A stretch of DNA of 64,000 bases from an uncultured bacterium. GTDB lineage: Bacteria; Omnitrophota; Omnitrophia; Omnitrophales; Aquincolibacteriaceae. The stretch covers positions 19,116 through 83,115 of the forward strand of contig CAYWRU010000001.1 in NCBI GenBank assembly GCA_964460795.1, read 5' to 3'. The position numbers and the translations under genes are program-made. The notes beneath the pieces were generated by a model. The model was not told the DNA's origin and ran no database searches. It saw only the letters and a program-made list of their open reading frames with translations. Each line of letters begins with the position of its first letter. Position 1 is the stretch's first letter. Shown one piece after another: positions 2,591 through 55,978 of the stretch.

Positions 2591-2869
2591 CTAACCTCTG
2601 CTTCCTTCGCAACACGATTCGTTAATTCGTCCGCAATCCTTGCATTGCAGTTTGGCTCGAATATCTACCAGTTCGCCGCCGCATGCAAGGCACTTAGTGA
2701 CCGCGCGTTCACAAAGTTGTTCAACCAAGTAGCCGTCATGGCGGCGCTGTTCTTCAACCGGATACGGCAATAAGCAGCCGACAGTCTGATAGGCGAAGAA
2801 TTCAAGCATTACCTCCGGTGTCGGTACGTACTTAATTGGCTCACCAAACTCGTCAAGAATATCAGCCAT
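2591..2869 (-). CDS. small zinc-ribbon protein (92 aa)
   Basis: Start moved to the ATG at 2869, giving a TAATG overlap with the RNAP stop. Cysteine pairs CLACGG...CKDCG. The track's longer N-terminus runs into the RNAP gene. Confidence 0.55.
   Translation of the reverse strand: MADILDEFGEPIKYVPTPEVMLEFFAYQTVGCLLPYPVEEQRRHDGYLVEQLCERAVTKCLACGGELVDIRAKLQCKDCGRINESCCEGSRG
2697..2712 (-). repeat. palindromic element copy (intragenic, 1 mismatch)
   Basis: The plus strand reads gtgaccgcgcgttcac. Lies inside the zinc-ribbon gene and encodes CERAVT. Confidence 0.55.
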
Positions 2870-5800
2870 TACTTCTCCATAATCACAACTTTGTCGCGCA
2901 CGTCGATGTCGCCTCGCTGCCATGCATTCCACACGTCTTGCGGATTGCGGAACACACGCGGGCGACGCTCGCTCTTGCCGGCAGTGGCTGCGTAAAGTCC
3001 GCCCACGTATTCCTGGGTAGGAGCGTGAACGGGAGACTTCATGTCCGACGGGCTCAACAGGTTTCGACTAGGCAGCATTCGATCAATCGCCTCTTTACGC
3101 GCTCGATCATCCACAGGAACGTGGAACTGCATAGCGTCGCCGTCGAAGTCGGCACCAAAGCCTTTCGTCACCAACGGGCTAACGCGCAGCGTTGCGCCCT
3201 TAGTTAGTTTAGGGAAGAAGGCCATGATACCGAAACGGTGAAGTACGGGCGCCCGGTTAAGCAGCACAGGCCGTTCCAGCATTTCAGCTTGCATGGCTTC
3301 CCGCGCTAGTTCCGTCTGGTCTTTTACGTGCCGGGCCGCTTCAACCAGCGGCATTCCGCGGCGAGCTAAGTGCCGGATGATAAAGTGCTTGTAGAGATCC
3401 CAGGCTTTTTCCTCAGGAAGTCCCACTTCATCCATGTCTAGGTTCGGGTCGGGCGTAATGGTTGCTCGTCCAACCAAGTCCACCGTCGAACTAATGAGTC
3501 GGCGCTGGACCGTACCAAGCTTTGGAGACGATCCGAAGATATGTCGCAGCAGGCCGCGGACGTTCTTTTCAACAAGCTTAGGATGCGTCGGATCACCGAG
3601 GCCCGTAACCGCTTTGAACGTGTCGTATACGGCCAAGCGCTCATCACCGACATCATCAATCTGCGTCGACAGTTCCCGCAGATTCTTGTTTGCATCGATC
3701 AGTTCCTTGTATAGGTAGTTTGGATCACTTACCAGCGGCAAGCCGGTATCGGACATGGCGCTGATGGGCCGGAAGCGAGGCGGCAGAACAGGCACGCGAT
3801 TAACGAACCAATCCTTCGGGTGAATGCCGAGAGCTTGCGCGGACTTGAGATAACCGAGTTTGCGGATGGCGTGGTCACGTGCCGTCTTGCGCCCGCCGTG
3901 AATCTCGGCTCTGGCTGTAGCAATCTCTTTGGTGATGTTCATCTTGGACAAAGCCTGGCGAATGCCGCTCGGCCCGCTAGAGCCGTCAGGCAGCTTCTCG
4001 CGGCCGGCCAGGATATCCAGGAACTTCTTTTCGGTAAGGTTGAGCATACGGCGAATAGGCTCTTCCATTACCGGGTTCGGCATAGGCTCGTGCAGCTTTA
4101 CAGCGGCCCAGCGATTGCCGTCGTGCCCGCCTGTTAGCGATGGGTCGAACAAGCCGCCCTTTACCGGCTCCATGCCTTTCTCAAGGCGGACGGTATCGCC
4201 GCTGTTGATATTACGGTCGCCGGCAAGCTCATCGATGTCGCTGTCCGTCATAGCCATAACGTGCAGCTTATTGCCTTCCGGTACTACGTTAATGCCGGCT
4301 GCTTTAAGCTCGTTCACGAACTTGTTGTAGATGAGCGGAATCTGCGGCTTCGGCGGCGTTACGCCCTTCATGAACGCAAGCCAGTAGTCCTCGTTACGCT
4401 GGCCGCGAATAGCGCCGGCATCACGCATGACTTCCAAGGCGCCGTGCGACAGCAGGGCGTTCTGGTCCATTAGCGACATACGCTTGGAACCGGTCTCGCC
4501 GCCCTTGGCCGGTTCGCCGGCCATTGTGTAGCCGCCGGTACCGCGACCCTGAGCTTTGGACTCAGATGTGTGGTGCAGCTTCATGAAGAAGCGGTGACCG
4601 GTAAGTACGGCAGGAATAGCGCGGCCAGTCTCCGGATCGGTAACCGTATCCGTGTCGCTAAGGCCGTGCATCTTCAGCTGATCTTGGACGTGAGCCATCA
4701 CGTCGCTGATCTTGTCGAAGTCCAGGATCTTTTGCGGCTGACCGGTTTGCTTGGCGATCTTGCCCAACGCGGCCTCGGCTACCTGCCCCACGTTAACGCG
4801 GGAGATAAGACCGAGCGGGTTGAGCAGAATATCGAACGCATTGCCCTGGCTGTCCTTCGGCATCTGATCATCCGGAACGATATCGGCAATAACGCCCTTA
4901 TCGCCGTAGCGGCCGGAAAGCTTATCGCCCACCTGCATCTGCGCAATGGACTTAACGAGAACGGTGTGGCCGTTCTTTGTCTTCACTACGTCGGTTACTA
5001 GACCGGGAGCATGATGCTTCCATAGTTCGGTGGCGTCCTCGAATCCGGCTTGGCCTTTGCGGTGGACTTTGTTCTGAGCCGACTCGCGCTCCTTGGCCGA
5101 AAGAATGAGCGGATCGCCGAAGTTAACGACCGTGCCAGGTTTAATAACGCCGTCATCGTCAAGATTCGCAATTGTGTTACGGTCGAACTTAGATGGGAAC
5201 AAGCCTAGATACGTGCGCTTGCCGGTCTTATGCTTGTCCGTCAGTTCGATTCCGTGTTGATACATGTGCTCGCTGGACAGCTTCTTGGCCGCAGCTTCGC
5301 TGATAACGAACGCGTCTTCGTAGTTCGCACCGCGGAAAGGCAGATAGCCGGCGTACAGGTTCTTGCCCAGTGCCGCCGTACCGGTCTTGTCCGTGTAGTT
5401 GCTGTACGCCAACAGCTGGCCTGGTTGAACCTGGTCGCCGATGTTTACGGCAGCGGTATTGTGCACGTACGTTTTACGGTTGTACGGGAAATGGTTGTAC
5501 AGCTGCTTGGTGGACGTAGTGCCGTCTGGATGACTGATCGTCATCGAGTCGTTGTCCATAGCCGTCACCCAGCCCGGCTTATCGGCGCGAATAGCGCCCA
5601 TCTGCCGGCCGTGTAGCTCTTCGAACGATTCGTTCTTACCGGGAGCCAATCCCTGCACTAGCGGAGCTTCTGCATCCACAAGCGGCAAAGCCTGTGTGAG
5701 CATGCGGCTACCCATCGCTACGCGCTGACCTTTAACCGCGCTCTTAAGCGGGATGAGGTTTGCGAGCGGACTGAAGGCATTCTCAAAGTGGGGCAGCGTG

Positions 5801-7332
5801 AGTTCGACCTGGTCCCGCGGCATATATTTGATCTTGCCGCCATGCATCGCAACAACACGTTTACCAGGACGGTCAAGTTCCCCTGGAAACGCGACAGCCA
5901 TGTCGGTAACGTCCTGCGGCGACTTCCATTCGGTGGCTCCGGTTTTGACATTAACGAATGGCGAGTAAATGCGACCGTCGCGACCTTTACGCGTTTGGTT
6001 AGCCAGAAAGATATCAACGCCCGCGCGAAGAGATTCCGGCGTGCGAATGGGGTCCATGAACCCGAGGTGCGATGGCTGGACGGATCGAGCTTCATCAGGC
6101 ACGGCTTCAAGCGATGGAATGCCGCCTTCGCCAAGCCGCGTGATACGGGTGAGCTTGTCAAAAATGTCAGCCGGGTTAATTTCTTCGAGACTCTGTCCCA
6201 GCCCCGAACCCAGCAAGGCTGCTTCCAATTGCGACGTAAGGGCTCCAGGTTGTACGTGCTTAAGGGTCCGCGAGAGGCCGGACTTCCATAGCAGGTTGTG
6301 TCGGATACGGCCCGAATCTTTGGTAAACCGCTCACTAAATAGATCCTCTGGTCCCATGACTACTTGGTTAGCGAGGTGATCGCGGTCGTCCGCTTCTTCC
6401 TCGCCGCGAGATACTTTAAGCAGCTTCTGTGTCAGTCGAAGAAGTGCGGCTTTATCGAGTTTGGCGAACGGCTGCCCCAGTGTTCGTTGTGTGATCTCTG
6501 GATCAAGTTCCATTTCATCCATAGCTGCAAGGAGCTTGGTCCGCTGTGTAGGCTCGTCGTCGGTGTCGGCTCGGCCTTTGGCGAGCTTGTCGTAGAGCTT
6601 ACGCAGTACGATGGGATCATCTTTAAGCATGTTGGAGGCAACAAGCTCAGGACCCCACGCTTCACGTAGTTCTTCGTCCTTTGCGCCCATGATGCGCAGC
6701 AGCGGCATGAGCGGAAGTTTCGCTTGGCCCAGGCGCATGTAGAACTGGCCTTTCGCAGGGTCCAAGAAATAGCGATGGCTAGGTCCCTTACCAGGCATAA
6801 TGTTCGCATGTGCTTCGATCTCTCCGTTGTCTTTGATACGGGTAAATACGCCGGGACGCAGACGCATCTGGTTGCCGAGCGTATATTCGTTACCGTTGTG
6901 GATGAATGTACCGCGGTCTGTAAGATACGGCACTCGGGCCACTGTGGACTTGATCTCGTCCAGTACGTTGCCGGTGGCGTTGTCCTTCAGTCGCCATGTG
7001 CCGCGCAAGCGCCGCCCAAGCGTCTTGCCTTCGAGAATGGCGCGCTTCTGGTCGGCAATGCTGTAATCGTCGGGATCGGCATAGTCCACGTCTGCAAGCT
7101 CCAACGTATGGAGCTTGTTCGTGGCCGGCTTCATAGTGCGAGCGGCTTCCAGGACGTTATCGAAGATAAGCTGCCGGCTTTTGGCCGCATCGCCGAATTC
7201 GCGATAGTCCGAACCGTCCGAAGCCGGCATGGGCTTCATAGGCGGCGCAGCCGGTTGCTGCGGCTTTACGACGGAAGCGGGCGTGGAAGCCATCGGGCGG
7301 GACAGCACAGAGAAGGGTTTATCTGCTGGCAC
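2869..7332 (-). CDS. multisubunit-type RNA polymerase, fused beta-like plus beta' N-terminal-half polypeptide (1487 aa)
   Basis: GTG start. Beta motifs appear in order: LTDRGTFIHNGNEYTL..RLRPGVF, TRLGEGGIP..VQPSHLGFMDPIRTPES, GQRVAMGSRMLTQALPL, GANYEDAFVIS, GDKLSGRYGDKGVI..LLNPLGLISRVNVGQV, FMKLHHTSESKAQGRGTGGY..GEPAKGG. Beta' motifs follow: GGLFDP, VLPPRFRP, NRAPVLHRFGIMAFFP, and GADFDGDAMQFHVP at about 3130-3160. Confidence 0.9.
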   Translation of the reverse strand: MPADKPFSVLSRPMASTPASVVKPQQPAAPPMKPMPASDGSDYREFGDAAKSRQLIFDNVLEAARTMKPATNKLHTLELADVDYADPDDYSIADQKRAILEGKTLGRRLRGTWRLKDNATGNVLDEIKSTVARVPYLTDRGTFIHNGNEYTLGNQMRLRPGVFTRIKDNGEIEAHANIMPGKGPSHRYFLDPAKGQFYMRLGQAKLPLMPLLRIMGAKDEELREAWGPELVASNMLKDDPIVLRKLYDKLAKGRADTDDEPTQRTKLLAAMDEMELDPEITQRTLGQPFAKLDKAALLRLTQKLLKVSRGEEEADDRDHLANQVVMGPEDLFSERFTKDSGRIRHNLLWKSGLSRTLKHVQPGALTSQLEAALLGSGLGQSLEEINPADIFDKLTRITRLGEGGIPSLEAVPDEARSVQPSHLGFMDPIRTPESLRAGVDIFLANQTRKGRDGRIYSPFVNVKTGATEWKSPQDVTDMAVAFPGELDRPGKRVVAMHGGKIKYMPRDQVELTLPHFENAFSPLANLIPLKSAVKGQRVAMGSRMLTQALPLVDAEAPLVQGLAPGKNESFEELHGRQMGAIRADKPGWVTAMDNDSMTISHPDGTTSTKQLYNHFPYNRKTYVHNTAAVNIGDQVQPGQLLAYSNYTDKTGTAALGKNLYAGYLPFRGANYEDAFVISEAAAKKLSSEHMYQHGIELTDKHKTGKRTYLGLFPSKFDRNTIANLDDDGVIKPGTVVNFGDPLILSAKERESAQNKVHRKGQAGFEDATELWKHHAPGLVTDVVKTKNGHTVLVKSIAQMQVGDKLSGRYGDKGVIADIVPDDQMPKDSQGNAFDILLNPLGLISRVNVGQVAEAALGKIAKQTGQPQKILDFDKISDVMAHVQDQLKMHGLSDTDTVTDPETGRAIPAVLTGHRFFMKLHHTSESKAQGRGTGGYTMAGEPAKGGETGSKRMSLMDQNALLSHGALEVMRDAGAIRGQRNEDYWLAFMKGVTPPKPQIPLIYNKFVNELKAAGINVVPEGNKLHVMAMTDSDIDELAGDRNINSGDTVRLEKGMEPVKGGLFDPSLTGGHDGNRWAAVKLHEPMPNPVMEEPIRRMLNLTEKKFLDILAGREKLPDGSSGPSGIRQALSKMNITKEIATARAEIHGGRKTARDHAIRKLGYLKSAQALGIHPKDWFVNRVPVLPPRFRPISAMSDTGLPLVSDPNYLYKELIDANKNLRELSTQIDDVGDERLAVYDTFKAVTGLGDPTHPKLVEKNVRGLLRHIFGSSPKLGTVQRRLISSTVDLVGRATITPDPNLDMDEVGLPEEKAWDLYKHFIIRHLARRGMPLVEAARHVKDQTELAREAMQAEMLERPVLLNRAPVLHRFGIMAFFPKLTKGATLRVSPLVTKGFGADFDGDAMQFHVPVDDRARKEAIDRMLPSRNLLSPSDMKSPVHAPTQEYVGGLYAATAGKSERRPRVFRNPQDVWNAWQRGDIDVRDKVVIMEK

Positions 7333-7340
7333 GTTAGTCT

Positions 7341-7386
7341 CTGATAGCTAAAGAAAAGAAGCGTAGGCGGGTTTCCCCGCCTACGC
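7341..7386 (-). terminator. rho-independent terminator followed by conserved TAGCTATCAG box
   Basis: Minus strand reads GCGTAGGCGGGgaaaCCCGCCTACGC then TTCTTTTCTTTAGCTATCAG. It lies between paralog A and the RNAP gene. Confidence 0.75.
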
Positions 7387-8818: not shown

Positions 8819-8858
8819 CTGATAGCTAAAAGAAAGAGAATCACCGGGCTAAGCCCGG
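8819..8858 (-). terminator. rho-independent terminator followed by conserved TAGCTATCAG box
   Basis: Minus strand: CCGGGC-tta-GCCCGG stem, then TTCTCTTTCTTTTAGCTATCAG. Confidence 0.6.
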
Positions 8859-12729: not shown

Positions 12730-12984
12730 TTAGTCGCCTCCGCAGTAATAGCCATATGAATCGTACTTACCTTGTCCGGCCCGACGCAAGCTTTGGTCTT
12801 TGACCGGGTAGAACGGAAGGCCCATGCTCGTTATACGCCACCACTTATCGGTGTCGTCGATGCGCACATAAGCGCCGGGCTCCAGCCCCTCCTGTACGGG
12901 GCACACAAACTGAGTAGTCAGGTCATCACGCTTTACGGACAGCTTGACGTGAAGCTCACGTCGTTCGCCTACATCAAAACACAT
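12730..12984 (-). CDS. hypothetical protein (84 aa)
   Basis: Track ORF. A copy of the palindromic element ends 1 nt before its ATG. Confidence 0.5.
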   Translation of the reverse strand: MCFDVGERRELHVKLSVKRDDLTTQFVCPVQEGLEPGAYVRIDDTDKWWRITSMGLPFYPVKDQSLRRAGQGKYDSYGYYCGGD

Positions 12985-12985
12985 A

Positions 12986-13003
12986 TTGCACGCGCGTTCA
13001 CAA
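12986..13003 (-). repeat. palindromic element copy (TGAACGCGCGTGCAAT on minus strand)
   Basis: The plus strand reads ttgcacgcgcgttcacaa. Abuts the start codon of 12730..12984. Confidence 0.7.
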
Positions 13004-13039
13004 AGTAGCGGTTAGTCTTACACCAGTGTACACGAAATG

Positions 13040-13552: not shown

Positions 13553-13600
13553 CTGATAGCTAAGAAAAAGCGATGGCGGGGCCGAAGCCCCAACCATCGC
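13553..13600 (-). terminator. rho-independent terminator followed by conserved TAGCTATCAG box
   Basis: Minus strand: GCGATGGttGGGGCttcgGCCCCgCCATCGC, then TTTTTCTTAGCTATCAG. Confidence 0.75.
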
Positions 13601-15880: not shown

Positions 15881-16189
15881 CTAGATAACTACGAGCGGCA
15901 CAGAAAGCCGTGTAGGAAATGTGTGCCCGTTAACGCACACAGAGTTACCGTCAAGTCGGCGCTCGGTGCTTTCGATATCGCCGGCACAGTGCGGACAGAC
16001 CCGCTTCTTAGCGGTATCGTCTTTGAGACGGGCGTCTTCCGGCTCTTTCGGAGTTTTCGCATCAAGAGACTTAAGACTGTGCTCTACGAAGCGAATAATG
16101 ACTTCTTGCGGAGTCATGGACAACATAACCGCCACCAAACCGATCTTGTCGTCGGTCTGGTCGGAGAACTCTACACAAATTATGCCCAA
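15881..16189 (-). CDS. zinc-ribbon protein (102 aa)
   Basis: TTG start. C-terminal CPHCAGD...CVNGH. A palindromic element lies upstream. Confidence 0.5.
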   Translation of the reverse strand: MGIICVEFSDQTDDKIGLVAVMLSMTPQEVIIRFVEHSLKSLDAKTPKEPEDARLKDDTAKKRVCPHCAGDIESTERRLDGNSVCVNGHTFPTRLSVPLVVI

Positions 16190-16213
16190 GGCTGCACCTG
16201 TTGGTTATAAGGA

Positions 16214-16231
16214 TTGCGAACGCGCGTTCAC
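16214..16231 (-). repeat. palindromic element copy
   Basis: The plus strand reads ttgcgaacgcgcgttcac. Lies directly after the stop of 16231..16416 and about 25 nt upstream of the next start. Confidence 0.7.
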
Positions 16232-16416
16232 TAAGTTGTTAAGTCTTTCTTTTCCTTTCGTAGAGAACGGAACATCGGCATTACGGACTGATGCTGCAGT
16301 TCCACCTCGATCTGGATGGTTTGCGTCGGCTCAGGTTTTCGGTCAGCCTGATAACAGATGTAGAAGAGCGCTGATACCCATGCCAGCGCTATGGACCCGA
16401 TTACGAAATCCTTCAC
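16231..16416 (-). CDS. small membrane protein (61 aa)
   Basis: One TM segment (VIGSIALAWVSALFYICY). ATGA-type overlap with the upstream gene. Confidence 0.5.
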   Translation of the reverse strand: MKDFVIGSIALAWVSALFYICYQADRKPEPTQTIQIEVELQHQSVMPMFRSLRKEKKDLTT

Positions 16417-23226: not shown

Positions 23227-23553
23227 TTAAAACTCGGATTCTTCCGCGTGACGTAGATTTACGGTGTGCACCATGGACACTAGCAACTGAGTATTCATGT
23301 CCATGATCACGCAGTGACCGTTGTCAACGCGGTGCTTCTTCATCTTTCCCGCGGAATTAGCCCACTCGCTTTGCGAATAGATGCGAGTGATGAAAACGAA
23401 CATACGTGGTTTCTCTTCGCCGTAGCCGAGATACCCGTAATACTTCTTCTTGTCCTCGTCGCTGTAGTCCTTGATGGTCTCCAGGTCGAGGGTTACGACA
23501 TCGCCGCGGCGAATGCGTTGTTTATCTTTTTTCTTGCTCATACTCTGCGTCAC
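23227..23553 (-). CDS. hypothetical protein (108 aa)
   Basis: Track ORF. Confidence 0.5.
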   Translation of the reverse strand: MTQSMSKKKDKQRIRRGDVVTLDLETIKDYSDEDKKKYYGYLGYGEEKPRMFVFITRIYSQSEWANSAGKMKKHRVDNGHCVIMDMNTQLLVSMVHTVNLRHAEESEF

Positions 23554-23956
23554 CTAATAGCTGATTTGTAAACGTGAGGAAGTGTTGGTTGAGTCTTTCT
23601 CGCTGCATGCCTCTTTGAAACGACTCATACATAAAAAAGAAGACACCGATGAGGAGCATAATAAAGCCGGCAATGCCGCTGGTCGTACGCGGCGATAAGT
23701 TGACGGCTTGGAGCACCAAAGATGATCCTGTGCCGACCAATACAGCGCGTACGACCAGCAGCAACCGTTGCATTACATGACCCTCCAGATAGCGCGTAAC
23801 GTGTAGAAAACGGCCTTGGCGAACATCGCCGTAGGCAAAGACACGGACACTGACGCAAACATGAAACCAACTCCCGAAACTAACTACTAACTTCCTCCAT
23901 GGACACGGATAGTCGTTATCCACAAGCACTTGCTTGTTCCTTCCTTTAAGCCGCAC
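23522..23956 (-). CDS. membrane protein (up to 144 aa; start uncertain)
   Basis: GTG start in the track. Two TM segments (LLLVVRAVLVGTGSSLVLQAV, IAGFIMLLIGVFFFMY). Confidence 0.45.
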   Translation of the reverse strand: MRLKGRNKQVLVDNDYPCPWRKLVVSFGSWFHVCVSVRVFAYGDVRQGRFLHVTRYLEGHVMQRLLLVVRAVLVGTGSSLVLQAVNLSPRTTSGIAGFIMLLIGVFFFMYESFQRGMQRERLNQHFLTFTNQLLGDAEYEQEKR

Positions 23957-23980
23957 GTTTCACATACGGCTGGCGAACAA

Positions 23981-24000
23981 TTGTGAACGCGCGTTCACAA
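23981..24000 (-). repeat. palindromic element, perfect 20-bp copy TTGTGAACGCGCGTTCACAA
   Basis: Read directly from the sequence. Intergenic, 25-44 nt upstream of the 23956 start. Confidence 0.8.
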
Positions 24001-24008
24001 TGTGTACG

Positions 24009-24311
24009 TTATTTGTCTTTGGGCAGCACGATTACGATGGGAATCGTAATAACGTAGCCCCTTGCCGTGTTTTGTTTGTTCAGGCACGCAAGTGCGCGGT
24101 ACGTGTAACCTTCAGAAGTGATGTCGATGAGCCACCATCCGTTGCCGGCATCCATGTTTATCTTGGTGCCCTCCGGCAAATATTGCTTTAGTAGCTCGGC
24201 GTTGCGCTCGCGCTCGATTTGAGTGACTTGCTCGGGCGTCAGCTGAATCTTCGGCTGAGCTTCACAGCCCAGCGCCGTCAGCAGAACCAGGCATGCGATC
24301 AGGTATCTCAT
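24009..24311 (-). CDS. lipoprotein (100 aa)
   Basis: MRYLIACLVLLTALG-C, with lipobox LTALGC. Confidence 0.6.
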   Translation of the reverse strand: MRYLIACLVLLTALGCEAQPKIQLTPEQVTQIERERNAELLKQYLPEGTKINMDAGNGWWLIDITSEGYTYRALACLNKQNTARGYVITIPIVIVLPKDK

Positions 24312-32770: not shown

Positions 32771-33070
32771 CTAATCACCATAGTCTTCGGCTAACCCGAG
32801 CCCCCAGTCTTCATCATCCTCTTCATCGTCTTCAAGCTCAGTAGGCTCGGAGTGGTGATGGCATTCGAACTCTTCCTTGCACTCGCTGCACTTGCAGGTA
32901 TCCGGGTACTTGTAGAAGCTGCCTTCTTCGTAGATCTCAATACCTAGCTCGTCTTTGAGTTCTTCGATGTCCTCTGCCGACAACTCAATAGCCTTGCCGG
33001 CAATGAAGTTCAGTGTGCCGCATTCGGAGCACACCCAACTGTACGCCGGATGCATTTCTGCTTTCTTCAC
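32771..33070 (-). CDS. zinc-ribbon protein with acidic tail (99 aa)
   Basis: CSECGT...CKCSECK, followed by ELEDDEEDDEDW. Confidence 0.5.
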   Translation of the reverse strand: MKKAEMHPAYSWVCSECGTLNFIAGKAIELSAEDIEELKDELGIEIYEEGSFYKYPDTCKCSECKEEFECHHHSEPTELEDDEEDDEDWGLGLAEDYGD

Positions 33071-33861
33071 GGTAAGGCCCTCTTAGGCATGTGGTATCGG
33101 AATCCGGTTCGTTTGTTTCTTACGCTGGCCATGCCTTTGTCTTGACCTACTTCCCATCCGGCCGGATGCCGGCCCATGAGCGTACGTAGCAAGTGATGCT
33201 TGGCCTGGTATTGTTTGGCGTCGCTTAACCGTTTGACCTTCTTCAGTTCATCGACTGATGCGTCCTGTGACTGCTTATCCAGAGATTCTTCGAGTGACAT
33301 TACGAACGCGCGGAGACAATCCGCTTTATAGCTTAGATCGCCCAACGCTTCTGAGATCTTTGCGACCTCGTTTTCTTGCAGTACCTTGGTTTTGCGAATA
33401 GCGAAGGTTAGATGAAACGGAAGCTCTTCACCATTGCGTGTAGGCATCGACGGAAGACCATAGCTGCGCCGTAGAGCAGACAAGTCAGGCGAGCGAATCT
33501 CTACAAACCACACACGGCTTACGCCGTTCCAGCCGGCAGGGTTAACGGTCTTTACCGGGCCAAGCTGATACGTGAATTCGTGGCCCCGTTCGGTGATGGC
33601 GTTTACACCGCCGATGCCCTCTAACTCATCTGGCCGCATGACCGAAATGTGGGCATTTAGAATCCCATCTTTTAGGGGGAGTTCAATACCCGGCTCGCCT
33701 AGCGCGTCGAATAGGCCGCGGGCAATGGCGTTGGGCACCGAGAGTAGTACCCACCCACTCTTCGACGCGTACAGGCGTCCTACGAGCCCATACGTGGATT
33801 CAGCGGCTGCTCCGACCTTGCAGAGACAGCCGTGAGCTTGAGCGATATCGTAAACATCCAT
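33067..33861 (-). CDS. 2H phosphoesterase-superfamily protein with C-terminal extension (264 aa)
   Basis: Two H-x-[ST]-x motifs 79 residues apart: H71-I-S-V and H150-L-T-F. C-terminal roughly 100 aa are helical and basic. Confidence 0.55.
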   Translation of the reverse strand: MDVYDIAQAHGCLCKVGAAAESTYGLVGRLYASKSGWVLLSVPNAIARGLFDALGEPGIELPLKDGILNAHISVMRPDELEGIGGVNAITERGHEFTYQLGPVKTVNPAGWNGVSRVWFVEIRSPDLSALRRSYGLPSMPTRNGEELPFHLTFAIRKTKVLQENEVAKISEALGDLSYKADCLRAFVMSLEESLDKQSQDASVDELKKVKRLSDAKQYQAKHHLLRTLMGRHPAGWEVGQDKGMASVRNKRTGFRYHMPKRALP

Positions 33862-37093: not shown

Positions 37094-37324
37094 CTAGCCG
37101 GTAGCGTTGCGGTATTCTTTGCACTTGTGGGCGCCGCTATCTCCGAACAACCTCCAGCCGCGTGATGTTAGCACCCACTGCAGCCCTTGAAGTCCGCAGT
37201 ATCGGCATGTGGGGCTTTTAGGCGTCGACAGCTTTGCGCTGTACGATCCGTCTTCGTAATCGGCCTCCCAATCCCAGTAGTCCTGTAACGACTCATCCAG
37301 GTGGTCGTCTGCATGTTGTCCCAT
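37094..37324 (-). CDS. small Cys-containing protein (76 aa)
   Basis: CRYCGL...H.C. Start/stop junction with the next gene. Confidence 0.5.
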   Translation of the reverse strand: MGQHADDHLDESLQDYWDWEADYEDGSYSAKLSTPKSPTCRYCGLQGLQWVLTSRGWRLFGDSGAHKCKEYRNATG

Positions 37325-38151
37325 TAGTAGATCGTAATTTGCGATGGGTTAATGAACTGCCGATCAAAGCCGGCCTGGGCCATCCCTTGGTGCAAACATA
37401 CGTGCTCACAATCGGTCCCGGCATAGCAGGCGGACTTGTATGCATCCATCCTATAAACGCCTAATCCCCCAAAGCACGATTTAACAGGCACCACTGGATC
37501 GCCCAGGCGCGGCAACCACGGGTTGACTTGTCGCGCCGTCAACGGCGTATAGTCCGGATTGCGAAAGGCCCACACATCGTAGTGAACCCAGTTACCTAGT
37601 TTTCCCTTTGCCCACGAAACTGAGCCCATAAAGTCCCAGTCATTGTGGCCGATGGTATTAGCGATTCCGTCTACGCTCCAACAGCCGCTAAGGTCAGTAT
37701 CAGCTACAATCACGTAGTCGTAGTCGCCGTACTTAGCCAAAGCCTCTTTGCGGCAACGGTTGCGGTAATCAGCCAGATCAGCCATACGGCCAAGCTCTCG
37801 TGTAGCCGGCCAATGTTTGCGATTAAGCTGCTCGCTAATGATGTTCACGCGAGGGCTGATACTAGCCCACTCTTTGAGACGAGCAGGTGTGTCGTCTTTG
37901 CTGTCATTTTCAAAGATCACAACAGCATAGTCTTTGAACTTCTGCCCCGTGGCCTCGATCAACTCAATAGTCTGGTCTAAGCGATCGCCAAGGCTACGAG
38001 CCAAGCCGCAGATAACGACTCGGCTGTTTTCCATGCGCTTGTAGCCTTCCTTGACGTAAGCGTGGTAAGCCTCTTTGTTTGGCTCAAACATGCGGCCGGC
38101 AGGCGGCAGTAGATTGAGCATGTCGAAAGATTGTGCACGCGCGTTCAACAT
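37324..38151 (-). CDS. putative GT-A glycosyltransferase (275 aa)
   Basis: VVIFENDSKDDT and VIVADTDL (DxD). A palindromic element overlaps its start codon. Confidence 0.45.
   Translation of the reverse strand: MLNARAQSFDMLNLLPPAGRMFEPNKEAYHAYVKEGYKRMENSRVVICGLARSLGDRLDQTIELIEATGQKFKDYAVVIFENDSKDDTPARLKEWASISPRVNIISEQLNRKHWPATRELGRMADLADYRNRCRKEALAKYGDYDYVIVADTDLSGCWSVDGIANTIGHNDWDFMGSVSWAKGKLGNWVHYDVWAFRNPDYTPLTARQVNPWLPRLGDPVVPVKSCFGGLGVYRMDAYKSACYAGTDCEHVCLHQGMAQAGFDRQFINPSQITIY
38131..38150 (-). repeat. palindromic element copy
   Basis: The plus strand reads ttgtgcacgcgcgttcaaca. Covers codons 1-7 of 37324..38151. Confidence 0.7.
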
Positions 38152-38152
38152 C

Positions 38153-38815
38153 TTATTCTCCGGCCTTGTCGCGGGCTTCTTTTAGCAACGCTTTTACGAG
38201 CATATGCAGGACTTCGTTTCGCTCCTTTAGGTACGTCAACTGTTCCTTCCGTTCCTCCTCGGGCAAACCAACAAGGTACGCGGCAGTCTTTTCGGCCTCG
38301 ATCATAAGCTGTTCAGGAGTGATCGGCCGGCCTAGGTACGGCTTAAGGATGTCTGGGCGCTGCGTGGACTTTTGCGCGCGCAGTGTTGCTGTAAGGTTGC
38401 CTGACTCGTAATCGCGTAAGATTTTAACAATCTGCCACCGGCTGCGCGTGTAATGCCGACCGTAGCGTTGTCCGAGATCCGTTCGATCGTCAAGGTAGTC
38501 AAAGCTTCGCTCATCGTATGCCCGCTTATGTGTTGGATCGATCCAGAAGTTGCGACTGGTGTAGTGCGGCACTTGTACTGTGATTTCACAGCCGTCGCGC
38601 AGTATCAGGTGCGCTTCGTTGAAGAACGAGATGTAATCATCAAGATGCTCAAGCACGTCGATGGCCAGGATTTCGTCAACCGTGTCGATGGACCACGGCC
38701 AGGGCGTCTTATTCAGATCGTGGACTACATCTACACCTTCGTGGTCAGATACGTCCACGTTGCAATACCCTTCGCGGATATCGCCTCCGCAACCCAGGTT
38801 AAGCTTTAGTGACAT
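38153..38815 (-). CDS. SAM-dependent methyltransferase (220 aa)
   Basis: Motif I LNLGCGGDIREGYCNVD and post-I/II region VDEILAIDVLEHL. Confidence 0.7.
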   Translation of the reverse strand: MSLKLNLGCGGDIREGYCNVDVSDHEGVDVVHDLNKTPWPWSIDTVDEILAIDVLEHLDDYISFFNEAHLILRDGCEITVQVPHYTSRNFWIDPTHKRAYDERSFDYLDDRTDLGQRYGRHYTRSRWQIVKILRDYESGNLTATLRAQKSTQRPDILKPYLGRPITPEQLMIEAEKTAAYLVGLPEEERKEQLTYLKERNEVLHMLVKALLKEARDKAGE

Positions 38816-45088: not shown

Positions 45089-45123
45089 TAGCTAAAAAAG
45101 ACGGGGCGGCTTTCGCCGCCCCG
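45089..45123 (-). terminator. rho-independent terminator with TAGCTA box between Ubl and E2-like genes
   Basis: Minus strand: CGGGGCGGC-gaaa-GCCGCCCCG, then TCTTTTTTAGCTAGGAG. Confidence 0.7.
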
Positions 45124-47288: not shown

Positions 47289-47607
47289 ACACAATTATTG
47301 TGACGCGCGTAGGAAGAGAATTTAGACCTACGCGAAAGAAAAAATGGGAGCTAGATGGGCACACCTAGGCCGGTTGCGGAAAGGTACGCATTCGTGCCAT
47401 GGTTCTAGATCGGTCGGATGGATCGATGGAGCCCTACCGGAAGGTGAGGCGATCTCTTCTAGTGCCCATCCGGGTCATGTCGCACAGTGGCTTCTCCGGT
47501 ATTGCATGACCGACGTTGTTAGGAAACGTCATAACAAGGATGTATGTAGGATTTACTAACCTCCACTGTATCCTTGCCAGCTCACTCCCACACGTATTGG
47601 AGCCAAC
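47289..47607 (-). ncRNA. candidate structured ncRNA or long 3'UTR (class unknown)
   Basis: 319 nt without an ORF, lying between the AAA stop and a terminator. Long-range 9-bp helix GATGGGCAC/GTGCCCATC plus several 6-8-bp hairpins. Strand not settled. Confidence 0.3.
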
Positions 47608-49010: not shown

Positions 49011-49057
49011 ATAGCTAAAGAGTAAGAAAGACGGGGTGGCCGTTTCCGACCACCCCG
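49011..49057 (-). terminator. rho-independent terminator followed by TAGCTAT box
   Basis: Minus strand: CGGGGTGG..CCACCCCG stem, then TCTTTCTTACTCTTTAGCTATGG. Confidence 0.65.
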
Positions 49058-49093: not shown

Positions 49094-49921
49094 TTAGCCG
49101 TGCGTGATCATCTGGTTATGCACCGTGCCTTCCGGCGCCGGCGCGGGCAGAGACACGGACTGCATACCGTTTCGGCTAGCGCGGATCTTTTCGAGCAGCG
49201 CGTGCGTATCGGCTTTCTTCGCATCTTCGGCATCCTTCGCTTCAGCAAGCAGGCGATCGGCGCTTTGGCCGTTCATGTCCGCTACGCCGAGCGAAGTATA
49301 GACCTGCGTGTTGAGCGCGGCCTTTGCTTTCTTGTATTCTTCGTCTTCGAAACCGCCGTTGACGGAATCGCCGATAAGAGCAAGGGAGGCGTTGGTCGCG
49401 TTCGAGATCTGCAGGCGAAGTTGCTTGTTTTCGGCGTCTTTCCGTTCGGCATCGATCGCTTCTTTCGCGGCCTTGATGATGAGCTTCTGGTTGCCGACCT
49501 GCGAGGTCAGATTTTCCAGAGTTTTACGCTCTGCCTGGATTCGCTTCTGCAGCGAGTCCAAATCAGCGACGTAGTTCATCAGCGTGCCGTTCTTATCGCC
49601 TTCCGGCGACTGGTCGATCAAATTGATACGGTTGAGAAGCCTCTGTTCCTCTTGCGTCATCTGCGTCAGAGCTTCTTGCGACTGCATCATCATGCCTCGC
49701 AGAGTCCCTAGCGCGATGTCCGCTGCTTTCATTTTTGCAGCCTGTTCATCGATCTTCTGAGCGACTACGGCTGCGGGATCGGTATTGAGAAGCGCATTGC
49801 TTGCTTTACCGATCTTAGCCCGACCAAAGGTCACGATGGACCAGAAGGCCGGACGGTTGAGTACGAAAATCACCGACAAGGCGCCGGCAACAAAAATCAA
49901 AGACGTTTCGATAATACCCAA
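49094..49921 (-). CDS. PspA/IM30-like coiled-coil protein with N-terminal TM (275 aa)
   Basis: TTG start with AGGAG upstream. IGKASNALLNTDPAAVVAQKIDEQAAKMKAADIALGTL parallels the PspA N-terminal helix (NANINALLEKAEDP..). Long heptad region. Confidence 0.45.
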   Translation of the reverse strand: MGIIETSLIFVAGALSVIFVLNRPAFWSIVTFGRAKIGKASNALLNTDPAAVVAQKIDEQAAKMKAADIALGTLRGMMMQSQEALTQMTQEEQRLLNRINLIDQSPEGDKNGTLMNYVADLDSLQKRIQAERKTLENLTSQVGNQKLIIKAAKEAIDAERKDAENKQLRLQISNATNASLALIGDSVNGGFEDEEYKKAKAALNTQVYTSLGVADMNGQSADRLLAEAKDAEDAKKADTHALLEKIRASRNGMQSVSLPAPAPEGTVHNQMITHG

Positions 49922-49946
49922 AACGGAGTCTCCTACTCGTTAAAGA

Positions 49947-49965
49947 TTGTGAACGCGCGTTCAAG
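49947..49965 (-). repeat. palindromic element copy
   Basis: The plus strand reads ttgtgaacgcgcgttcaag. Overlaps the stop of 49961..50269 and lies about 25-45 nt upstream of the PspA-like start. Confidence 0.75.
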
Positions 49966-50269
49966 ATCCGAAGTTTGGAGCGGACTGGGTCCCGCACCCT
50001 GGGCACTGCGTAGCGTACTTGTACTTCATAGTGCCGCATACGCCGCAGCGGGTCTGGTTACCCTGAGCCCCTGTAATAGGATTGGCCCGCTGCTGCTGAC
50101 TGGCTCGGTACGAATTGTCCGCATTGATGAAGCTTTGCATCACGCTTTCGAGGCTTGGCTGCGGTGCCGGCTTGGGCGCCGTAAGACGAGCAACCCCGAA
50201 CCCAATGCCGACCAAAACAACCAACACAAGGACCGCAATGCCGGCCACCACGAACTTGTTGCGAAACAT
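49961..50269 (-). CDS. TM plus zinc-ribbon protein (102 aa)
   Basis: TM VVAGIAVLVLVVLVGIGFGV. C-terminal CGVCGT...CPGCGT. Confidence 0.6.
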   Translation of the reverse strand: MFRNKFVVAGIAVLVLVVLVGIGFGVARLTAPKPAPQPSLESVMQSFINADNSYRASQQQRANPITGAQGNQTRCGVCGTMKYKYATQCPGCGTQSAPNFGS

Positions 50270-54072: not shown

Positions 54073-54798
54073 CTATAGCCCGAATGTTTTTGCCAACAAG
54101 TTAACGCTGAGCGTCAACATTGGCTGATGTTTGGGCGAGGAAGCAATGGCTTGCTTGACCTGATCACCTAGCTGCACAGAGTCGCAGATAGGGAAGTAAT
54201 CGCACCAAGAATGCACGGCTGCCGATACGTCAGCGCCTTTATCGCTGACATCTTCGGCAAGTATGCCGGCGGCGATGAGTACGTACTTGTTTCCGTCGTC
54301 TATCTGCTTTTGCAGATTAGGCCGAATGATGTCGTACTGATCCTGTAGCCGAATCTTAAGCAGCTTCTCTCCGATGTAGGCTTTGGAGTGGAGGGCAACT
54401 AATCCGTTTATGTAACGGTTGCCGTCAGCGGCCTCCCAAGGGCCATCGGACATATGCCATGCGACGGCTACGCCGTCCAGCAAGCCTTTGCCTGAAAACG
54501 AAGTAAGAGCAAGCTCATTGGCCTTTTCCTTTGTTAGGACAAAGTTCTGCTTGCCGTTGCAATACCACGACAGCTCGCCTTCCATAAGGTGACACTGTTC
54601 GATGGTAAGCTCGCCGGATGCGAACAAACCCGACGCAATGTACTCGTATAGCGTCAACCCGATGCTTCTGACAAAGTCGACTTCTTTTGGGTCAGTACCG
54701 GCCGGCAGCGATGCCGTGATTGCGCGGTCGGTGAGTCCAAAAGGCGTCGGAACAAACGATTGCTCCATGTGAAATTTCCGTGAGGTATGGATGACCAA
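54073..54798 (-). CDS. hypothetical protein (up to 241 aa; start uncertain)
   Basis: Track ORF with a TTG start. The alternative ATG is at 54768. Confidence 0.5.
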   Translation of the reverse strand: MVIHTSRKFHMEQSFVPTPFGLTDRAITASLPAGTDPKEVDFVRSIGLTLYEYIASGLFASGELTIEQCHLMEGELSWYCNGKQNFVLTKEKANELALTSFSGKGLLDGVAVAWHMSDGPWEAADGNRYINGLVALHSKAYIGEKLLKIRLQDQYDIIRPNLQKQIDDGNKYVLIAAGILAEDVSDKGADVSAAVHSWCDYFPICDSVQLGDQVKQAIASSPKHQPMLTLSVNLLAKTFGL

Positions 54799-54830
54799 AT
54801 ATTGTGACGCCCTAAAGGGCGTTATTTAGT

Positions 54831-55382
54831 CTAATAGGCTCTAACCTCCCATATGACGGCGTTACGGTACGGTATACAACCTACGGCCTTATCAAAGGCG
54901 GAAAACTCAACAGCGCCGTCCGGATGGTCATCTAGAAGCTCCATCAGGTCGTCATAGCTATTAGGCCACAGGTGCCGCTGAAGCAGCATCTTGGCGCGAA
55001 GACCTGTAGCCGTTAGCGAAGCTTTCCTGTTAATGGCGTCACGAAGCGCTATACCGCGTTCCGTGCTGTACTGCAGGTCCAAGCCGGTCGTCTGCCTGGA
55101 AAGCTCTCCCTGGATCAATAAGAGATCGTCAGGGGGCGTTTCATTGAAGTGGAAGTTCTCCGGCGGTTCAACCAAGGGCCACTTCTCTCGAAGCGCGTCT
55201 ACAGGCTGACCGTAAACAAAAAGGCCGGCAGTTTTTACGTGCCGGCAGGAGACCTTCCCGTGATATTCGCTGTCACATAGGGCAGCGTATGTTGTCCAAG
55301 TTCGCAGTTTATTGCCGAAAGCACCTTGTTCGTACATTCGGCGAAACTCGACCTTTGACTTGGGCGTCAAATGTATTGACAT
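54831..55382 (-). CDS. hypothetical protein (183 aa)
   Basis: Track ORF, 16-nt overlap with the upstream HD gene. Confidence 0.55.
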   Translation of the reverse strand: MSIHLTPKSKVEFRRMYEQGAFGNKLRTWTTYAALCDSEYHGKVSCRHVKTAGLFVYGQPVDALREKWPLVEPPENFHFNETPPDDLLLIQGELSRQTTGLDLQYSTERGIALRDAINRKASLTATGLRAKMLLQRHLWPNSYDDLMELLDDHPDGAVEFSAFDKAVGCIPYRNAVIWEVRAY

Positions 55383-55978
55383 AGCCTCTCAAGAAATTCA
55401 GCAGCAGCGTGATCAGGCGACCAGCACTCGATCTTGATGCTGTCTAGTAGCACAATGTCGGGCGTCCAACCCCAACCCTCACCTTTGCTCGGCATAAGTA
55501 CTTCAGCCTCGGCGCGAAGTACTAAGTTGTCGGCAAGCTTTATTGCTTTGTGGATTGCTTCTGAATCCACAATATCAAACTTCCGGCGAATCGCGTCCAT
55601 GATCGTCGTCTCAAGCTGGTGGTAGTTTGTTACCAGCGGCTTCAACGGACGAGGAAGATCAACAAGGTATGCCTCACTTGCGTCGTGCATCAAGCCGGCC
55701 AAAGCCAGCTTTGCGCCCGACGTTCCGCTATCCATAAACATTCCGAACGCGCGTTCAATAAGGTCATGGACATGGCAGCAGTGCTCGGCCACCGAATAAA
55801 ACCTATTCGTGTGGCCGGCATATCGGCACTGCTTAGAAAGAGCCAAGGCAATGTCGGCTACGATGATATCTTCGTTTTTCGGGTTTAAGATATCGAATCG
55901 AACTCCGGAATTGCACTCAATGAAACCGCCCCCATGAAGGTTGCCGGTTACGTCAATCTCTCTAATTACTGCAGTCAT
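55367..55978 (-). CDS. HD-domain phosphohydrolase (YfbR-like 5'-nucleotidase type)
   Basis: H..HD and downstream D: RFYSVAEHCCHVHD and LMHDASEAYLVDLPRPLK. Confidence 0.7.
   Translation of the reverse strand: MTAVIREIDVTGNLHGGGFIECNSGVRFDILNPKNEDIIVADIALALSKQCRYAGHTNRFYSVAEHCCHVHDLIERAFGMFMDSGTSGAKLALAGLMHDASEAYLVDLPRPLKPLVTNYHQLETTIMDAIRRKFDIVDSEAIHKAIKLADNLVLRAEAEVLMPSKGEGWGWTPDIVLLDSIKIECWSPDHAAAEFLERLCQYI
55743..55758 (-). repeat. palindromic element copy (intragenic)
   Basis: The plus strand reads ccgaacgcgcgttcaa. Lies inside the HD gene and encodes IERAFG. Confidence 0.6.

Follow-up and report, generated by a model that had tools for sequence, protein, structure and literature searches.

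The 64,000-nucleotide stretch of DNA analysed here (the window) corresponds to positions 19116-83115 of contig CAYWRU010000001.1 (C1), which is regarded as part of a large phage, and carries eight copies of a palindrome that is symmetric over 26 bp and occurs at 24 sites on the two contigs assigned to this phage. The reading favoured here, although held tentatively, is that a clade-specific dimeric protein encoded by the phage is the candidate binder of these 24 sites, the most likely effect of binding being a genome-wide control of read-through transcription at gene junctions. C1 (174,705 bp, 53.8% G+C) was recovered in a 3.7-Mb bin of 176 contigs, most of the other large contigs of which have about 47% G+C. 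Since it encodes a fusion of the RNA polymerase (RNAP) beta and N-terminal beta' subunits, the C-terminal half of beta', a family-A DNA polymerase and a large terminase, it is considered to derive from a large phage; 228 of its 244 genes (93%, by a codon-usage gene call) lie on the minus strand. A second contig, C28 (36 kb, 54.3% G+C), carries four copies of the motif and a homologue of gp10 of the Salmonella phage Arash, a sigma-like virion protein (tblastn 4e-11), and is for these reasons assigned to the same phage, whose genome thus reaches at least 211 kb. Their presence in this bin is a binning error, the bin being that of an Omnitrophota genome of about 47% G+C. Megablast returned no near-identical phage records, and Pfam searches with Sigma70_r2 and Sigma70_r4 gave no match on the phage contigs, the sigma-like gene having surfaced only through Arash gp10. 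The phage looks lytic; no repressor was seen among the Pfam matches listed for its small proteins, and no integrase was encountered, no search aimed at an integrase having been made.

The perfect 20-bp palindrome TTGTGAACGCGCGTTCACAA that an earlier note had described at 23981-24000 is indeed present, and the excess of copies over chance claimed in the same note was confirmed. Its 12-mer core GAACGCGCGTTC occurs seven times in the window with at most one mismatch, against 0.59 expected (0 of 100 shuffles reach seven), and the 20-mer six times with at most three mismatches, against 0.00 expected. Over the whole of C1, the most over-represented 10-mer is CGCGCGTTCA, with 14 occurrences against 0.38 expected. 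The background used for this 10-mer count was of order 2, maximal-order Markov statistics being uninformative. The genome-wide set of sites was obtained by scanning all contigs of the bin with a symmetrised position-weight matrix (PWM), which yielded 20 sites on C1 (scores 27-37) and four on C28 (scores 22-37). The scores are cleanly bimodal between these sites and the rest of the bin: none of the other 174 contigs gives a score above 15, and five shuffles of C1 gave 0 matches. An exact 14-mer scan of IMG/VR returned 78 single unrelated matches, which is estimated to be about the chance level. The list of close copies previously given stood for 2695-2714, 12984-13003, 16214-16233, 38131-38150, 49947-49966 and 55741-55760, and had missed a copy with a hybrid half-site at 33300-33319. 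Two of its entries, a supposed one-base-deleted form at 47297-47310 and a related form at 54801-54822, fall below the PWM threshold and belong to a different element, made of a short hairpin and GCGTCACAATAATTG.

An alignment of the sites on the coding strand shows conservation over a fully symmetric block of 26 bp, ASATWGTGAACGC followed by GCGTTCACWATST, with no information beyond it. Position by position, the left arm and the mirrored complement of the right arm have near-identical base frequencies, the ACAT...ATGT flanks included, and the palindrome therefore has no orientation. The statement that all copies share an orientation is thus empty of content, the symmetry extending through the very flanks that had been used to set it. 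The GCGC spacer is nearly invariant among the sites; the full 8-bp stem is found in only one of the 20 C1 sites, and six sites are hybrids that combine a consensus arm with a TCTCC/GGAGA arm. In the alignment of the 24 sites the paired cells amount to 64.4% (69.1% in shuffles), a value equalled or exceeded in 498 of 500 shuffles, and covariation between the arms does not reach the mean of the shuffles. The halves decay independently of each other, as expected of a site for a dimer that can do with one weak half-site and not of an RNA stem or an extruded hairpin. An operator for a dimeric regulator, one of the roles suggested at the outset, fits the 26-bp dyad symmetry, the independent decay of the arms and the hybrids that keep one good arm.

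Another of the roles initially suggested was an RNA-level element, in which the 8-bp stem with its GCGC loop would act in the mRNA, controlling translation, processing or termination at the junctions. The perfect copy does form a hairpin upon RNA folding (-10.8 kcal/mol, z -2.7), and the junction sites lie within or beside the ribosome footprint; however, five of the six copies tested do not form one (z -1.4 to +1.5), and no T-run follows the palindrome sites. The palindromes of related phages, such as CAAAGATATCTTTG, are moreover unable to form useful hairpins. Taken with the near absence of the full stem, the pairing below the shuffled expectation and the lack of covariation, these results contradict the RNA-hairpin reading, which is already largely refuted and keeps only a minimal probability.

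The distribution of the sites relative to genes is strongly biased in C1. Of the 20 C1 sites, 11 fall outside gene interiors when the raw gene calls are used, where 15.8% would be expected (P 6e-5); correction of two over-extended starts raises the number at junctions or in intergenic positions to 13 (P 1e-6) and leaves seven sites inside genes. A called start follows within 60 nt at eight of the 20, the expectation being 11% (P 8e-4). At no fewer than ten sites the upstream gene stops within the palindrome, at the TAG that forms the first bases of the left arm or at the TGA of TGAAC. For the downstream gene two arrangements occur: a start 14-25 nt further on that is preceded by a Shine-Dalgarno sequence or, in four genes, a right-edge ATG that has none. 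In the latter four, this ATG coincides with the final three bases of the 26-bp site and comes free, because A-T-S belongs to the palindrome consensus; translation can be coupled to the stop codon 14 nt upstream, so that there is no need to postulate leaderless transcripts. In the window, five of the eight sites occupy gene junctions and have a minus-strand start codon at a distance of 0-51 nt (Table 1), in agreement with the five copies that had been reported near such starts. The observation that these junctions lack a terminator also held, since the upstream side of the junction sites shows neither a terminator hairpin nor a T-run, and a bound protein would therefore meet transcribing polymerase. 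The bias toward start codons is real in C1 but not general, many sites of the related phages being inside genes. The sites of C1 are also regularly spaced, with a mean interval of 8.6 kb, a minimum of 3.2 kb and a coefficient of variation (CV) of 0.46, against 0.96 for random placement (P 1e-4). The genes downstream of the sites include those for a DNA polymerase, a glycosyltransferase, HD and radical-SAM proteins and unknowns.

The comparison with related phages was made with 70 viral contigs retrieved by the RNAP fusion, mostly at 50-63% identity and many of them 150-230 kb long. None of the 70 carries the C1 word. Two related clades carry palindromes of their own, CAAAGATATCTTTG and GTGGAGACGTCTCCAC, at 24-27 copies per genome. 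With two to three mismatches allowed and the reversed word as control, CAAAGATATCTTTG was counted 24 times in a complete 204-kb genome with terminal repeats and 23 times in 154 kb (reversed word 0), and GTGGAGACGTCTCCAC 27 times in 190 kb and 23 times in 181 kb (reversed word 0-1). Spacing is regular in most of these genomes (CV 0.33-0.64; for instance 0.52 in G006, P<1e-4, and 0.33 in G009), with no significant regularity in G001 (CV 0.88, P 0.35). In the RNAP tree each word is limited to a shallow clade, C1 standing alone on a long branch. Within a clade, orthologous sites are 100% identical and their 45-nt flanks 24-67% identical. Many of the relatives' sites lie inside genes, including that of the conserved RNAP beta'. 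In the clade whose palindrome contains GATATC, a site falls in a conserved beta' segment, which reads AKISL where C1 has AAVKL, and a site of the same clade is made by the codons CAA AGA TAT CTT TAC of the conserved peptide QRYLY, a peptide that other relatives write with other codons and without a site. In C1, the orthologue of the gene immediately downstream of this QRYLY site is preceded by the site at C1:10343, and here the place has been kept while the word changed. As judged from these alignments, selection acts on the DNA word and on its number, and probably also on the spacing of the sites. Because sister clades differ in the word but agree in the number of copies, the sites and the predicted binding protein would be co-evolving. 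Arash, which is the closest cultured relative, although a distant one, has no dispersed palindrome.

According to the favoured reading, that of sites for a dimeric DNA-binding protein, each arm (ASATWGTGAACGC) would be read by one subunit, one good arm being enough to keep a site. Selection would keep about one site per 8 kb, and the sites would be placed where they are cheapest, that is, in tiny intergenic gaps, with the left-arm TAG or TGA used as a stop and the right-edge ATG as the next start, or inside a gene where no gap is available. The preferred effect is that of a repressor or roadblock-type "gate" on read-through transcription, stoperator-like, rather than that of a core promoter, and the specificity of the phage-encoded binder would differ from clade to clade. 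We infer that a protein binds, and likewise what its binding would do. Several observations weigh against this reading. No candidate binder was found, there being no helix-turn-helix (HTH) or ribbon-helix-helix family among the 25 families listed in each of the Pfam scans of 188 small C1 proteins, and Pfam and PHROG scans of the genes downstream of the sites gave no DNA-binding candidate. The relatives' sites within essential conserved genes (RNAP beta') and the seven in-gene sites of C1 fit a pure gate poorly, the regular spacing of C1 points at least as much to a chromosome-level role, and the genes downstream of the sites do not form one functional class.

Two further recurrent elements were found, neither of which belongs to the palindrome family. 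The first is strand-specific and consists of a GC-rich intrinsic terminator hairpin and a T-run, followed by TTAGCTAT(C)AG, 2-15 nt before a start codon. About ten copies are present on the coding strand of C1, and the element is kept in distant family members (L089, L090, L093, L110, L123, L126, L134 and L141); in distant members TTTAGCTAT is found 19 times on the coding strand against four on the other. The family's RNAP probably uses this terminator-TTAGCTAT element as its promoter or start region, and the element is a better promoter candidate than the palindrome. In Arash, whose virion has been reported to package an RNAP and a sigma factor (PMC10585845), the most over-represented word is the asymmetric TTTACTTATACC (16 copies of its 10-mer core), and TTTAnnTAT is common to this word and TTAGCTAT. 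The second element (class ii) comprises a stop codon in TAAAT, a short ACGC-loop-GCGT hairpin with variable loops and then GCGTCACA(A/G)TA(A/T)TTG. Its six copies, all on the minus strand, include the two that had been listed as forms of the palindrome, with the right arm of which it shares CACAAT; an intrinsic terminator follows 40-70 nt later in three of them, which suggests short transcripts or leaders.

Table 1. Palindrome sites, further recurrent elements and reference genes; positions refer to the window unless a contig is named, and open reading frames (ORFs) are on the window numbering.
Feature	Position	Strand	Remarks
Palindrome site 1	2692-2717	none	PWM 35.8; inside the zinc-ribbon ORF next after the RNAP gene; a 283-aa Zn-peptidase-like gene (1738-2589) starts 105 nt downstream
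Palindrome site 2	12981-13006	none	PWM 34.6; right edge (last core base and two flank bases) is the minus-strand ATG of ORF 12730-12984 (84 aa), with no Shine-Dalgarno sequence before it
Palindrome site 3	16211-16236	none	PWM 33.5; first three bases of the left arm are the TAG stop of upstream ORF 16231-16416; TTG start of ORF 15881-16189 24 nt downstream, behind an AGGTG Shine-Dalgarno
Palindrome site 4	23978-24003	none	PWM 36.7; the sole perfect copy, CAATTGTGAACGCGCGTTCACAATGT on the plus strand; intergenic; the stop of ORF 24009-24311 lies 8 nt before it, and the GTG start of ORF 23522-23956 follows after 24 or 51 nt
Palindrome site 5	33297-33322	none	PWM 27.1; hybrid copy, TTGTCTCC GCGC GTTCGTAA on the minus strand; inside ORF 33067-33861
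Palindrome site 6	38128-38153	none	PWM 32.5; overlaps the ATG (38151-38149) of glycosyltransferase ORF 37324-38151; 2 nt past the stop of ORF 38153-38815
Palindrome site 7	49944-49969	none	PWM 33.6; left arm holds the TGA stop of ORF 49961-50269; TTG start of ORF 49094-49921 25 nt downstream, behind an AGGAG Shine-Dalgarno
Palindrome site 8	55738-55763	none	PWM 30.7; inside HD-domain ORF 55367-55978, with the right-edge ATG in its frame
Palindrome sites of C28	C28:6465, 11048, 21341, 32422
RNAP beta-beta'N fusion gene	2869-7332	minus	1487 aa; query that fetched the 70 related loci
Arash gp10 sigma-like homologue	C28:17920-18474
TTAGCTA(T) element	7345-7351	minus	one of the terminator-TTAGCTAT copies of the next row; directly follows a terminator hairpin with its T-run, the RNAP start codon being 12 nt further on
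Terminator-TTAGCTAT copies in the window	7345-7351, 8823-8829, 13557-13563, 45089-45095, 49012-49018	minus
Terminator-TTAGCTAT copies of C1 beyond the window	C1:16908, 111135, 114974, 163475
Class ii, GCGTCACAATAATTG element	47292-47306	minus
Class ii, GCGTCACAATATTTG element	54796-54810	minus	behind an ACGCCC-TTTA-GGGCGT hairpin
Class ii, further copies	C1:97052, 100714, 113130, 119232	minus

Among the alternatives to a gate on transcription, a possible one, though of lower probability, is that the sites form a chromosome-level array of landmarks by which a phage protein organises, replicates or marks the 210-kb genome, the junctions being merely the cheapest place for 26 bp; loop anchoring or condensation (as for matS/MatP), replication or enhancer elements (as for baculovirus hr and IE-1) and clamp or factor loading are examples of what such landmarks may serve. 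This possibility draws on the regular spacing of C1, G006 and G009 (about 0.96 being the CV for random placement), on the approximately 24-27 copies per genome across clades with different words, on the sites written into conserved coding sequence by the choice of codons or residues (AKISL in RNAP beta'; QRYLY), and on the lack of a single class among the downstream genes; in addition, the authors of the study on the Cluster O mycobacteriophages judged a transcriptional role unlikely for the dyad repeats of those phages (PMC4351075). Against it, no ParB_N gene (PF02195, E<=0.1) was found on C1 or C28, ParB being the sole organiser family searched for, nor did any protein recognisable as an organiser turn up; the junction bias of C1 is strong, with several sites abutting start codons exactly, one site per transcription unit would explain regular spacing equally well, and the sites of G001 are not significantly regular. 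In its broadest form, for which we would claim no more than a modest chance, a family of uncultivated jumbo phages would keep a genome-wide ruler of about 25 palindromes per genome at intervals of about 7-8 kb, co-evolving with a clade-specific predicted DNA-binding protein and organising the chromosome rather than regulating single genes. The sites codon-written into conserved genes would then, with the same reserve, belong to an array for loop anchoring, for replication- or enhancer-type loading or for the marking of self DNA; if true, this array would be the phage counterpart of the baculovirus hr elements or of matS/MatP.

It was also proposed that the palindrome is a core promoter for the phage RNAP or, in a wider version, an activator-dependent promoter element, with transcription starting at the near-invariant right-edge A; mRNAs would be leaderless where the ATG abuts the site and have leaders of 15-25 nt elsewhere, and regular spacing would serve transcription-driven genome entry or the uniform expression of a one-directional genome. 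The phage does encode a multisubunit RNAP and a sigma-like protein, 93% of its genes are on one strand, four junction genes start at the right-edge ATG without a Shine-Dalgarno sequence, and about 24 copies at about 8 kb would be a plausible number of transcription units. However, perfect dyad symmetry would give divergent transcription, the region that needs to melt is CGCGCG, and the palindrome has no conserved element at a fixed distance downstream. The transcription start would lie inside the site in the four genes in which the ATG is formed by its last three bases, and the missing Shine-Dalgarno sequence is explained by the translational coupling that the upstream stop codon within the site allows. 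Moreover, the RNAP is 53-63% identical across relatives whose palindromes are unrelated, what the clades share is the strand-specific terminator-TTAGCTAT element, with its 19 to 4 strand preference, and the repeated word of Arash is asymmetric and accompanied by no palindrome. The promoter explanation is accordingly disfavoured and appears unlikely. It is improbable that the sites belong to a host regulator such as LexA, a repressor that the phage would sense or titrate, with words that differ between clades by host. The consensus TGAAC GCGC GTTCA contains the core GAAC-N4-GTTC, which we take to be the Cheo-type LexA box of Gram-positive-like SOS systems, and clade-specific words would fit host-specific factors; nevertheless, the near-invariant GCGC spacer and the 26-bp conservation are unlike LexA boxes, the spacer of which is variable and A/T-rich, the bin shows no enrichment outside the phage contigs (although the bin may not be the phage's host), and the relatives' words do not resemble known LexA motifs. 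Still less credit can be given to a recombination linker or selfish repeat that, with no binding protein, would have reached gene boundaries and would promote modular exchange. The junction location would agree with it, and recombination between the Cluster O repeats has been inferred (PMC4351075), but the relatives' sites arise by point substitution and codon choice inside conserved genes and not by insertion, and strict symmetry, regular spacing and a kept copy number need selection on the word itself. A Chi-like site was rejected, the word being too long and too symmetric and the phage carrying a T7 gp5.9-like RecBCD inhibitor. Sites for a type II topoisomerase, a recombinase or a homing endonuclease were likewise rejected: it is implausible that a phage would keep 24 places of cleavage or crossover in its own genome, and the changes in specificity from clade to clade are too sharp.

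Some observations made along the way concern other sequences in C1 and its relatives. A weak palindrome built of two alternative half-sites (TCTCC ACGC GGAGA, PWM 14.4) lies at C1:163937-163950, and its GGAGAC/GTCTCC hexamer is an arm of the palindrome of the GACGTC clade, in the opposite arrangement. The A-tract "palindromes" of L108, L126 and L142 (AAAA-N-TTTT) stand at the positions of the relatives' terminator and TTAGCTAT-type element, and were not counted. The frequency of CGCGCG per 24 kb is bimodal among the relatives, 0 even at 63% G+C against 20-39 at 50-59% G+C (loci L083, L122, L123 and L120 versus L085, L097 and L111), which may reflect restriction avoidance or a host-tied dinucleotide bias; the CGCGCG-rich relatives were rejected as motif carriers, their flanks sharing no motif and only a CpG-rich composition. 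Directly upstream of the palindrome site at C1:147070 are two adjacent minus-strand genes, one for a stand-alone protein like the RNA polymerase alpha-CTD (C1:147341-147652, L173:4642-4953; 103 aa, PF03118, 1e-11) and one for a CsrA-like RNA-binding regulator (C1:147135-147323, L173:4436-4624; 62 aa, 4e-21); they are only a lead and are not linked to the motif. Regarding the gene content of the phage, the large terminase gene (gpA ATPase, 4e-8; C1:150403-152274) is the sole long plus-strand gene on C1. A Ro60/TROVE and vWA protein of 551 aa (1e-60) is encoded at C1:164605-166260. The small phage proteins include, by Pfam scan, RF-1/PCRF (release-factor) domains and a protein like the RNA-repair RlaP, and one small protein, from an ORF in the window, matches Pfam Phage_T7_Gp5_9, the RecBCD inhibitor (3e-14).

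Several systems of dispersed sites are known with which the array can be compared. The Cluster O mycobacteriophages, Corndog and its relatives, carry a 17-bp dyad repeat, TGTTCGG-N3-CCGAACA, in 34 copies, which are found in intergenic gaps, at gene starts and in gene interiors, are absent from the host and have conserved positions among close relatives; the authors took the repeats to be targets of a dimeric protein of unknown role (PMC4351075). The array described here is similar in its tens of near-identical inverted repeats, restricted to the phage, without orientation and of mixed placement (13 at junctions or intergenic and seven in genes on C1). The word is nevertheless different and the phage family unrelated, so that this is the same kind of feature and not the same family: the Cluster O repeat is 17 bp long in siphoviruses of 70 kb, whereas here 26 bp are conserved in a phage of about 210 kb with its own RNAP, at a density about four-fold lower, with regular spacing and with sister clades that carry unrelated palindromes at the same copy number. 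The stoperators of Cluster A phages, bound by the immunity repressors L5 gp71 and Bxb1 gp69, are asymmetric sites of 13-14 bp in temperate phages, read by a monomer and oriented with transcription (PMC9283540, PMC6550527). They resemble the present sites in being many and dispersed, in short gaps and often overlapping stop or start codons, and they act on elongating polymerase and not on promoters, as the palindrome would do. In contrast to them, the 26-bp palindrome is symmetric and its orientation undefinable, and neither a repressor nor an HTH family is among the Pfam matches listed for the 188 small C1 proteins.

Outside the phages, the baculovirus hr elements are imperfect palindromes of about 30 bp, bound by the dimeric IE-1, that serve as enhancers and replication origins. 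As in the present case, these palindromes are scattered through a large viral genome and resemble one another within it but not across lineages; however, they form tandem, non-coding clusters in a eukaryotic virus, while here the copies are single and many overlap coding sequence. In bacteria, matS/MatP, SBS/SlmA, NBS/Noc, parS/ParB and the KorB operators of IncP plasmids consist of 10-70 dispersed palindromes of 13-16 bp per replicon, bound by dimers, many of them inside genes, and have a structural or global role. Unlike these, the sites reported here favour junctions and are evenly spaced over the whole genome. The array is a variant of the dispersed phage palindromes, a kind of feature known in few phage groups, and its new aspects are the swapped word at the same copy number, the regular spacing and the direct signs of selection for a DNA word inside the relatives' conserved genes. 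The binder is probably part of a genome-wide control or organising system of large phages that have their own transcription machinery, and the comparison between clades offers a handle on it, as a protein whose recognition surface changes with the word. The part of these results most worth following is the family-wide pattern, namely the same number of sites, regularly spaced, with a swapped word and with sites inside genes.

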